Part shown: in pieces, positions 16,080 to 62,107 of the stretch | Position numbering within the stretch: position 1 is the first letter of the stretch | How the letters are laid out: each line of letters opens with the position of its first letter | Source of the DNA: Lytechinus pictus | Lineage: Eukaryota | NCBI RefSeq assembly: GCF_037042905.1 | Contig: NC_087245.1 | Span: 24,554,001-24,618,000, forward strand | Reading direction: 5' to 3' | Length of the DNA stretch: 64,000 nt | Notes under the pieces: model-generated | The model's database searches: none | What the model saw: the letters and a program-made list of their open reading frames with translations, nothing else | What the model was told of the DNA's origin: nothing | Translations under genes and position numbers: made by a program

Positions 16080-16786
16080 TGTGACAAAAATAATCTCTGA
16101 AAAACAAAGCATACACGCGAATGTTTCACAACAACCATCCACACATTGCGCAACAAATCGTGACGACCTCTGTGCATGCGAATGTCGCAGCATTTTGCTT
16201 TTTCTTTTATGATTTTTTTCATGGTCAAACTATAATGACAGTCTACAGTAATGGTCCCCAATTCGGGAGCGTTGGCATCATTATCACAAGGCGCAGACTC
16301 TTCGGTTTGCTATTGTAAAGATTGGATTAAAGTATTGATATATGTAATTTATGTCAAATACTACTGCTTTAGATCCTTGATCCTGAATGAGAATGGATTA
16401 AAGACTCTAACTAAACAATATTTTTATGCATTATTGCTAAAATGATACATTCCACAGTTAAGCTCGACATTATATACACATATATATTAATGATGAGATT
16501 GTGCCACGATGTGTGAGTTTAAGAGCATGCGTTGTTGATAATGTGGATAGGTGTTGTGTAACAGTCACACCATCGAGTCCGACACAAAACCTATATAAAA
16601 TAGAAATAGTCTGCTTCGGCATATTATGGAACAAAGCGATCACAAAAGGTTTAGTAAATGCCGTGGAAATAAAATAGATTTTGAAAGGAACATAACTCTC
16701 TCAAAATATGTATATATATATATATATTATATATATGCATCCATTGCCCCAACCGAGGGCCCCCACCAAATCCAACTAGCTTCAGT

Positions 16787-16832
16787 GTCCTGATGAGCCG
16801 CCCGTGATCGAGGCGCGAAACCATTGGTAGAC
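16787..16832 (+). ncRNA. Minimal type I hammerhead ribozyme motif (Penelope-like element/retrozyme type)
   Basis: Stem I GTC(16787-89)/GAC(16830-32). Core CTGATGA (16790-96). Stem II closed by G16797:C16816 with cgcc/ggcg pairing. GAAA (16817-20). Stem III ACC/GGT with an ATT loop. Cleavage triplet GTA (16827-29). Confidence 0.75.
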
Positions 16833-17033
16833 CAGAGGTGAGGAAATTTCTATATATATATATATATATATTATATATATGTGTGAAGTTATACATGTAC
16901 TACAGCTTTGGCAACTCTTTTATTTAAATATTGTGTGAAAGAAAGGGATGAAGAGAACAATGGTAGGCGTAGCTTAAATCAAGGTTCCCCAGAGCTATCT
17001 ACCCTTTTGGAAAAATTGGTGATGCCGAAAAAA

Positions 17034-17091
17034 TGTCTCTGCCGGGAATCGAACCCGGGCCCCCAGCTTTGAACGCCGGTGCCTTAACCAC

Positions 17092-17093
<2 letters not shown>
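17034..17093 (-). other. tRNA-like (Glu-like, TTC) Pol III unit, 5'-truncated; probably element-derived, not a bona fide tRNA
   Basis: Minus strand reads tagtggttaaggcaccggcgTTCaaagctgggggcccgGGTTCGATTCCCggcagagaca, followed by TTTTTT. It has a partial A box, a perfect B box and a T-run terminator. Confidence 0.6.
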
Positions 17094-17130
<37 letters not shown>

Positions 17131-42445: not shown

Positions 42446-43044
42446 CAAGTCCACCCTCAGAAAATGTTTATTTGAATAAATAGATAAAAATCAAACAAGC
42501 ACGACACTGAAAATTTCATCAAAATCGGATGTAAAATAAGAAAGTTATTACATTTTTAAGTTCGCTTATTTTTCACAAAACAGTTATATGCACAACTCGG
42601 TGATATGCAAATGCGAGAGTAGATGATGTGCCTCACTCACTATTACTTTTTTTATTGTTTTAATTATACAATATTTCATTATTTATATATTTGGCAATAA
42701 TGACCAACATGACTGAACCACATTATGTAAGGACAGTGGTAATCCACATGTTTAGGGAGTATTTTTTTTCTTCACATGACAATGAGGCAGAAATTTAAAT
42801 ATTTCATATTTCATAATAATGAAATACAAAAGAAATAGTGAGTGTGTGATGTCATCAGTCCCTCATTTGCACACCGACCGGGATGTGCATATAATTACTG
42901 TTTTGTGAAATTAAGCGATTCTTTAAAATGTCATAACTTTCTTATATTAACATCCGATTTTGATGAAACTTCCAGTGTTATGCTTGTTGGGTTTTTCTCC
43001 TTTTATCCAAATCAACTTTTTGTTGGGGTGGACTTGTCCTTTAA
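42446..43044. mobile_element. Kolobok-like MITE of about 600 bp, copy 2
   Basis: caagtccaccc ... ggggtggacttgtcct|ttaa, with long inverted arms. Confidence 0.88.
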
Positions 43045-61498: not shown

Positions 61499-62107
61499 AA
61501 GTCCACCCCAACAAAAAATTGATTTGAATAAAAAGAGAAAAATCCAGCAAGCAAAATACTGAAAATTTCATCAAAATTTTATGTAAAATAAGAAAGTTAT
61601 GACATTTTAAAGTTTCGCTTAATTTCCCCAAACAGTTATATGCACATCCTGGTTGATATGCAAATGAGGGGACTGATGACGTCACCAACTCACTATTTCT
61701 TTTGTATTTTATATGAAATATGAAATATTCTGACTTTCTCCCCCTTGTCATGTGAAATCGGGTTTTGTTCCTTCCTGAACATGTGAAATGAACATGTTTA
61801 ACATTATGTGGTTCAATAAAAGTTAGTCCTATATAAATGTCAAAATGGTAAAAAATGAAATATTGTATAATTCAAATAATAAAAAAACAAAAGAAATAGT
61901 GAGTGATGGACATCATCGACTCTCTCATTTGCATGTTACTAAGTTGTGCATATAACTGTTTTGTGAAAAATAAGCGAAACTTTAAAATGTCATAACTTTC
62001 TTCAGTATTTTACATCCGATTTTGATCAAATTTTCAGCATTATTCTTGTTAGATTTTTCTCTATTGATTTTAATCAACATTTTTTATGGAGTGGACTTGA
62101 CCTTTAA
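61499..62107. mobile_element. Kolobok-like MITE of about 600 bp, copy 3
   Basis: aagtccaccccaacaaaaaattgatttgaat ... gtggacttgacct|ttaa. Confidence 0.88.

Follow-up and report, generated by a model that had tools for sequence, protein, structure and literature searches.

Two probably independent retro-insertions in one (TA)n microsatellite of Lytechinus pictus: the tail of a Penelope-like element and a truncated copy of a tRNA-bearing unit

Do a hammerhead ribozyme and a tRNA-like Pol III unit that lie side by side in a (TA)n array belong to one element? The locus in question is part of a 64,000-nucleotide stretch of Lytechinus pictus DNA—hereafter called the “window”—and had been described in a first-pass annotation as the remnant of a single element pairing both motifs. 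The two inserts belong to different families and lie on opposite strands (Table 1), which argues against that description. The character assigned to the element, a microsatellite-targeting and ribozyme-bearing retroelement, is right for the hammerhead insert; the tRNA unit also targets (TA)n, but no ribozyme was found in it. We favor, with reasonable though not full confidence, two independent retro-insertions: the tail of a Hydra-clade Penelope-like element (PLE; insert A), and a truncated copy of a tRNA-bearing, retrozyme-like non-autonomous element of ~407 nt (insert B). Both inserts at this locus are inert fragments.

Table 1. Features of the locus, numbered by position in the window
Feature	Position	Strand	Remarks
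Left (TA)n tract, single TT interruption	16711..16736	none	sequence
5′-truncated 3′ end (pLTR) of a Hydra-clade Penelope-like element (insert A)	16737..16851	+	copies in the genome G000
Minimal type I hammerhead within insert A	16787..16832	+	predicted cut after A16829
Hammerhead stem I, GTC/GAC	16787-89/16830-32	+	
Hammerhead core, CTGATGA	16790-96	+	
Hammerhead stem II	16797-16816	+	
Hammerhead core, GAAA	16817-20	+	
Hammerhead stem III, CCATTGG	16821-27	+	
GTA cleavage triplet	ends at A16829	+	
Middle (TA)n tract with TT interruption	16851..16880	none	boundary common to insert A and insert B
5′-truncated copy of the ~407-nt tRNA-bearing unit (insert B)	16880..17093	-	unit positions ~13-226
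T6 run that immediately follows the tRNA and resembles a Pol III terminator	17028..17033	-	RNA reads cross T6
tRNA positions 13-72 of insert B	17034..17093	-	G32, 4-nt variable loop, B box
TCA anticodon of insert B	17072-17070	-	read in register
Right (TA)n tract with TT interruption	17092..17127	none	

As the annotation had claimed, TA runs bracket each insert. Since all three tracts carry an identical TT interruption, we read them as two successive target-site duplications, one per insertion and in either order; the left tract is the probable duplication of the PLE insertion, and the right tract is probably that of the tRNA-unit insertion. The 3′ end of insert B meets the middle tract at one of the two ends that are usual in its family.

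Is the motif in insert A a hammerhead? By its sequence, it has what defines the type I class: the conserved core, three stems and an NUH triplet. The full core, the near-palindromic stem III, the GTA triplet and the 3-bp stem I were all found where the annotation had placed them. The window contains one match to the full type I descriptor, and 150 Markov-simulated windows together gave just one, while the loose core pattern alone stays within chance (7 matches; shuffle mean 3.59, with 18 of 100 shuffles reaching 7). An Rfam search, which the annotation had proposed as a check, scored no hammerhead at the window motif, and the minimum-energy fold of the region is not the hammerhead fold (z from -0.2 to -1.5). 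Across four PLE families of the genome, stem I covaries (GTC/GAC, TGC/GCA, TTG/CAA and TCG/CGA), as do the arms of stem III, with a mismatch in one copy, L091; the stem covariation on which the annotation had staked its reading is thus present in other copies. Its view of stem II as a slightly mutated perfect hairpin does not hold, because the bulge on the 5′ side recurs in other copies: it is present in those listed, many of which have a T that gives five contiguous pairs. The 9-nt stem III region has no computed structure alone (0) and reaches a computed -8.9 kcal/mol as a dimer. If this minimal hammerhead is active at all, it probably acts as a dimer within tandem transcripts. According to Cervera and De la Pena (2014; PMC4209133), such minimal motifs are of the dimer type, with low activity in vitro. 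The metazoan PLE hammerheads described there share with the present motif the short helix I, the small palindromic helix III, the bulge at the 5′ end of helix II and the dimer-dependent design, and by sequence we see no notable difference between them. Elsewhere in the window, at 42796-42858 (minus strand) and 61673-61730 (plus strand), and also at locus L021, another repeat combines CTGATGA with a distant GAAA and has no hammerhead stems.

Which element left insert A? A search of G000 with positions 16737-16851 gave 41 matches, with 40 of the 61 candidates scored. Other copies are preceded by a frame that combines a reverse transcriptase (RT; YRDD) with a C-terminal endonuclease (EN), the latter with CxCx5C, CxxC and CxH motifs. 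The annotation had suggested a minimal type I hammerhead from a PLE pLTR and a link to a GIY-YIG/RT frame, and this RT and GIY-YIG-type frame upstream of other hammerhead copies confirms both. At L062, RT and EN share a single open frame that ends just before the hammerhead, and the EN motifs read CNCRVKEDC, CNLC and CRH, with no CCHH by eye. Because a Pfam search of the RT/EN frame named no family, the EN label follows the motifs given in PMC8557442. A member of the insert A family, L070, has a 5′ hammerhead followed by an ORF start with RWR and, further on, ADKT; the related L084 carries RWK, of which RWR is a conservative variant. The nearest long open frame, which is that of L072 with 736 aa, shows 63% identity across 409 aa and lies between hammerheads 2,374 nt apart. 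All 30 copies fetched run into TA, and their 3′ ends fall into two groups, 17-28 nt (18 copies) and 79-96 nt (12 copies) past the cleavage site; the window copy has the short end, at ~21 nt. Several copies form inverted pairs. No intact full-length copy of the insert A family was found, and RNA from the hammerhead tail reaches a depth of at most 6 in data set X21 and 0 in X22 and X24.

These features place insert A, by sequence, as the tail of a Hydra-clade PLE, an element of known biology. As described by Craig et al. (2021; PMC8557442), the clade comprises PLEs with a C-terminal EN and a short single ORF of less than 3 kb, RT then EN; DKT in place of DKG; a CxCX5C linker, with CxxC and CxH around conserved E and N; a hammerhead in the pLTR together with (TA)n insertion; and a tail at one end with inverted 5′ copies. 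All of these have counterparts here, the DKT in the ADKT of L070. The clade has RWK, whereas the insert A family has RWR; the assignment is by motifs, and every motif tested points to Hydra.

Several observations on these PLEs stand apart from the locus. About 20 nt at the PLE ORF start (L070:330-370) correspond, in reverse complement, to the sequence immediately before the 3′ hammerhead (window 16737-16752), and the truncation of the window copy and of several others falls within that sequence; end-to-end pairing of the PLE RNA is a possible meaning of this complementarity. At G000:C15, ~1.88-2.02 Mb (L094-L097), decayed Hydra-like PLE frames form tandem arrays with periods of ~2.83 and 3.24 kb and more than 30 matches. 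Open Hydra-type frames of 700-810 aa occur in three other families (L072, L073, L081, L082 and L084), two of which have hammerheads; they are candidate mobilisers. L062:6832-7923 holds an open frame of 364 aa, which, from its motifs by eye, we take to resemble a Tc1-type transposase.

The hammerhead half of the locus is ordinary, and the interest lies in the tRNA unit. What is this unit? Its family gave 1,394 first-look candidates, 1,750 exact matches to a tRNA-arm pattern and 2,693 matches to a trailer 15-mer. Full units are 405-419 nt long, non-coding and tandem, and they hold a complete 72-nt cloverleaf with the anticodon UCA, a 4-nt variable loop, a 7/5 fold, a fully paired acceptor stem, and intact A and B boxes. 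Rfam scores this tRNA at 60.9 bits as a general tRNA, its best clan match. ARAGORN predicted 52 genes, spread over 24 of 25 loci that had been picked by likeness to the window or to the window hammerhead, and all 52 have TCA. In the window copy it found no tRNA, because tRNA positions 1-12 are lost; the A box is cut as well. Neither strand of the unit contains a hammerhead core, and Rfam named no ribozyme family in it at E values up to 5. The tRNA is the least diverged part of the unit (1.7%, against 2.2-5.0% elsewhere), and two distinct units are 99.4% alike when they come from one locus (10 pairs) and 96.1% alike when they come from different loci (425 pairs). At G000:C2, 8.866-8.883 Mb (L184 and L214), at least 41 near-identical 406-bp units form an array. 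Its start lies in (TA)n, at the 3′ end usual in the family, and it is absent 3 kb past the last unit seen; 14 of 19 sampled units are identical.

The insertion marks of the unit are those of PLEs, and are unlike those of SINEs or Helenus TRIMs. At 54 chromosome-1 loci (58 minus the duplicates L123, L125, L126 and L147, with four further chromosome-1 loci, including the window, left out), 74 of 90 segments have their 3′ end at one of two AT-rich spots, where (TA)n almost always adjoins, while the 5′ ends are scattered. Both orientations occur at 27 of these loci, and more than one unit at 17. A search by shared sequence for an autonomous partner among 30 Hydra loci gave only inserted copies and one 19-nt match (E 0.32), and a metagenome scan with the tRNA arm gave no match.

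Known systems resemble the unit in part. For metazoan retrozymes, PMC7229834 and bioRxiv 10.64898/2026.07.22.740005 propose a PLE-type rolling-circle reverse transcription of a circle. As described there, the non-LTR retrozymes have non-coding tandem units of 150-450 nt, abundant RNA, a highly self-paired predicted circle and a proposed mobilisation by PLEs, as the unit does. The differences are that each retrozyme repeat has a type I hammerhead, whereas the unit has a full tRNA and an anti-tRNA arm instead; that the unit targets (TA)n strongly; and that its circle is only predicted. The unit appears to work like a non-LTR retrozyme, yet it lacks the hammerhead by which that class is defined. 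Non-autonomous Chlamys and Naiad PLE derivatives (PMC8557442) likewise show pLTR-like head-to-tail insertions and microsatellite targeting without a canonical hammerhead; they usually share their 3′ end with an autonomous family, whereas the Hydra loci supplied none for the unit. Helenus TRIMs (Kojima 2024, PMC10886601) and tRNA-derived SINEs, Schistosoma Sm-alpha among them, share with it a tRNA-derived sequence, Pol III boxes and a short non-autonomous form. However, a Helenus TRIM has two LTRs, with a PBS and a PPT between them, and a 4-5 bp target-site duplication, while the units follow one another directly, head to tail, lack an internal part and have variable 5′ ends. A tRNA-derived SINE has its tRNA head at a fixed 5′ end and a 3′ tail, whereas the unit has scattered 5′ ends and an internal tRNA and is found in tandem or inverted copies. 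The unit further differs from this group in having no poly(A) tail and an intact cloverleaf. Among the titles and abstract openings of the papers listed in literature searches, none describes a tRNA-bearing, ribozyme-free unit of PLE type; Repbase, Dfam and the supplements of PMC8557442 and PMC10886601 may list such families.

What RNA does the unit make? Reads from two stranded rRNA-depleted runs of organism A, both from one study, were mapped to L024:1200-2330, a stretch that holds both families. It drew 90,144 of 8,710,588 and 74,955 of 8,252,136 records—about 1%, nearly all on insert B—and 99.9% come from one strand (antisense 0.11% in X21), which is the tRNA-sense strand under the usual library convention. 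Around the whole unit, the depth is ~23,000-44,000, summed over two reference copies. No start or end within the unit reaches one fifth of the local depth, and the pile-ups listed lie only near the edge of the reference. The largest of them (L024:2322, unit position 331; 1,205 and 1,004 molecules) is a 5′ G that precedes the tRNA by 79 nt; it occurs in both stranded runs and immediately follows bases left unpaired in the predicted rod described below. It fits neither RNase P nor TSEN cleavage, and may be an edge effect or otherwise technical. Allele frequencies in the RNA track those of the dispersed genomic copies (r = 0.95, with 18 of the 40 sites shown and near-fixed sites inflating r); therefore, organism A should be this species or one very near, with many subfamilies expressed. 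The C2 array cannot be the sole source, as about half of the RNA carries two alleles that it lacks. For organism B, a cDNA run placed 1,832 of 12,895,792 records on the stretch, from both strands and mostly 90-95% alike, which is not a controlled comparison. The share of about 1% of reads, on one strand, suggests that the unit RNA is a stable species.

Folded as a circle, the unit of L034 reaches -140.4 kcal/mol, compared to -98.2 ± 4.7 for 60 shuffles (z = -9), while for five control tRNA loci z lies between -2.8 and +0.2. In the computed rod, which all 30 distinct natural units adopt, 39-41 pairs join the leader to the trailer and to the D and T arms of the tRNA, and only the anticodon hairpin survives. 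Forcing the cloverleaf within the unit costs a computed 23 kcal/mol. In contrast, when the first 72-110 nt are folded alone, the acceptor, anticodon and T stems form. Of 203 variant cells in the rod, 68 stay paired, 10 of them by a double change, and G-U and A-C mismatches are equal in number (6 vs 6); both tests have low power, because the family is young. The even coverage, the lack of a dominant end and the rod fold are compatible with a circular RNA, although short reads give the same picture for a circle and for long tandem transcripts, as any junction would be seamless.

How could such a unit spread? From these data we infer, as the best reading, a ribozyme-free, retrozyme-like circular RNA that is copied by PLE enzymes and possibly cut and joined by tRNA-processing enzymes. 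Transcripts of tandem unit copies would be cut into pieces one unit long, and such a piece would close into a rod-shaped circle. Next, a PLE enzyme of the Hydra or Naiad type that targets TA would nick (TA)n, prime on either of the two AT-rich spots, and reverse-transcribe round the circle, leaving 5′-truncated, inverted or multi-unit insertions. In its full form the proposal is tentative: an abundant circular RNA parasite, in which a host-cut tRNA takes the place of the ribozyme and an anti-tRNA arm protects the ligated rod, is what the unit might possibly be.

The least supported step is the cut, which would most likely be made by host tRNA-processing enzymes on the nascent cloverleaf, either by RNase P at tRNA +1 or by TSEN in the anticodon loop; the unit has no recognizable ribozyme, and the cloverleaf is thus the obvious processing signal. 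The position of tRNA +1 at the tip of the rod would suit RNase P and a ligase. In the TSEN variant, a dimer would contain a one-unit “intron” flanked by the 5′ half of the first tRNA and the 3′ half of the second. G32 would then form a pair with the C35 that belongs to the following copy, three bases ahead of the 3′ cut (37/38). The rest of that helix is weak in the unit. G32 is lost in 17 copies, each at a separate place, whereas the loss of U33, described below, recurs within loci; this lends the variant weak support. According to a tricRNA study (10.1101/497545), it is the strength and not the identity of the anticodon-intron pair that matters, and the pair alone is not sufficient. The reads that run across the tRNA 5′ edge and T6 are a point against this best explanation. 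If it is true, a retrozyme-like element needs no ribozyme, which bears on how Naiad and Chlamys PLEs thrive without hammerheads, and animals would have a second way, based on a tRNA, of making small circular RNAs in very large amounts.

Could the tRNA be a Pol III promoter and nothing else? The unit would then be a PLE-mobilised tandem repeat, its RNA a linear read-through from many tandem loci, and the rod a fossil inverted junction without a role. The intact A and B boxes have precedents as promoters in SINEs and Helenus TRIMs, inversions are common in the family (27 of 54 loci), and long concatemer transcripts would equally give even coverage. The rod shows no covariation support and no excess of G-U over A-C, and may for this reason be the relic of an old inverted junction. 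However, T6 follows the tRNA directly, and a run of this type should stop Pol III. The paired acceptor stem and the low divergence of the tRNA exceed what a promoter needs, and the one-stranded abundance suggests a stable species rather than read-through. We regard the promoter-only reading as doubtful.

A true retrozyme, with a self-cleaving ribozyme of a type that the searches miss, would account for the size range, tandem layout and abundance, which are those of metazoan retrozymes (PMC7229834), and it could explain the 5′-end pile-up at position 331. Against it stand the possibly technical origin of that pile-up, which lies near the reference edge, the lack of a hammerhead core on both strands and the lack of Rfam ribozymes, and it is unlikely. 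An HDV-like fold starting at position 331 gave no fit by eye.

Is the tRNA itself functional? The annotation had called the insert a tRNA-Glu-like B-box unit with a T6 terminator; the B box and T6 are borne out, while the Glu type is wrong, as the anticodon is TCA. Host Glu genes (56 matches) resemble the unit in the D and T arms (75-81% over 58-61 nt) and differ from it in the acceptor and anticodon arms; a straightforward Glu derivative fails on the anticodon and acceptor stem, and the unit tRNA may descend from a Glu tRNA. Two further patterns for a parent tRNA gave only family copies, an unrelated stretch (L114) and a single-copy relative. This relative (L108:1488-1563, minus strand; G000:C1 near 40.798 Mb) is a cloverleaf 78% like the unit tRNA, with the same acceptor start and a different but fully paired anticodon stem; its loop is read as Arg(CCT), and the CCA that follows it may be part of a target-site duplication.

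A tRNA-Sec has the UCA anticodon together with a long variable arm and extended acceptor/T stems. The unit is no tRNA-Sec, given its 72 nt, 7/5 fold, general tRNA as best Rfam clan match and, above all, a variable loop of 4 nt; ARAGORN nevertheless labels it “SeC,” because the anticodon read alone sets the label. One genome holds over a thousand UCA-anticodon cloverleaves that tRNA finders mislabel as selenocysteine tRNAs.

Over a thousand loci might instead yield a working UGA-reading (opal suppressor) tRNA. The 72-nt cloverleaf, its Rfam score, the uniform TCA and the T6 immediately after the tRNA agree with this, and a mature 75-nt tRNA would escape standard RNA libraries, so the run data are compatible. 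On the other side, position 32 is a G, whereas this position in tRNAs is nearly always a pyrimidine; the long variable arm of tRNA-Sec is lacking; and the cloverleaf is predicted to be hidden in the unit-length RNA. Furthermore, U33 is missing in 22 copies, 16 of which have A33, at 10 loci, and four of these loci repeat A33 in two or more units. The variant therefore spreads, U33 seems dispensable for spreading, and this counts against decoding. We consider a suppressor role very unlikely.

Finally, do the two families form one element after all? Schistosoma Sm-alpha repeats hold a tRNA promoter and a hammerhead in one unit on one strand, and the annotation had likened the locus to them; the insert B unit has no hammerhead of its own, belongs to a separate and far more abundant family and lies on the opposite strand. 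None of the classes considered—SINE, TRIM, Sm-alpha-like repeat and tRNA-Sec—accommodates the unit. For INDEPENDENCE, insert B lies within 1.5 kb of 5 of 26 distinct hammerhead loci, or 4 of 25 without the window, compared to 11 of 68 TA loci from the initial 8 Mb of C1 (4/25 vs 11/68, p = 0.59). The families thus meet only as often as any TA tract carries the tRNA unit, contrary to the co-occurrence that the annotation had expected, and the shared TA target explains the pairing. A single composite, in which the tRNA promoter drives a hammerhead-bearing, TA-targeting unit, accounts for the adjacency in the window and the few joint loci and is otherwise largely refuted: a TA tract of its own separates the opposite-strand inserts, the co-occurrence equals the background, the relative orientation varies among loci, and the RNA levels of the two families differ more than 1000-fold. 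Moreover, among 30 tRNA-unit loci only that of the window carries a hammerhead, and L076, which belongs to a different Hydra family, likewise has the tRNA unit as its neighbor.
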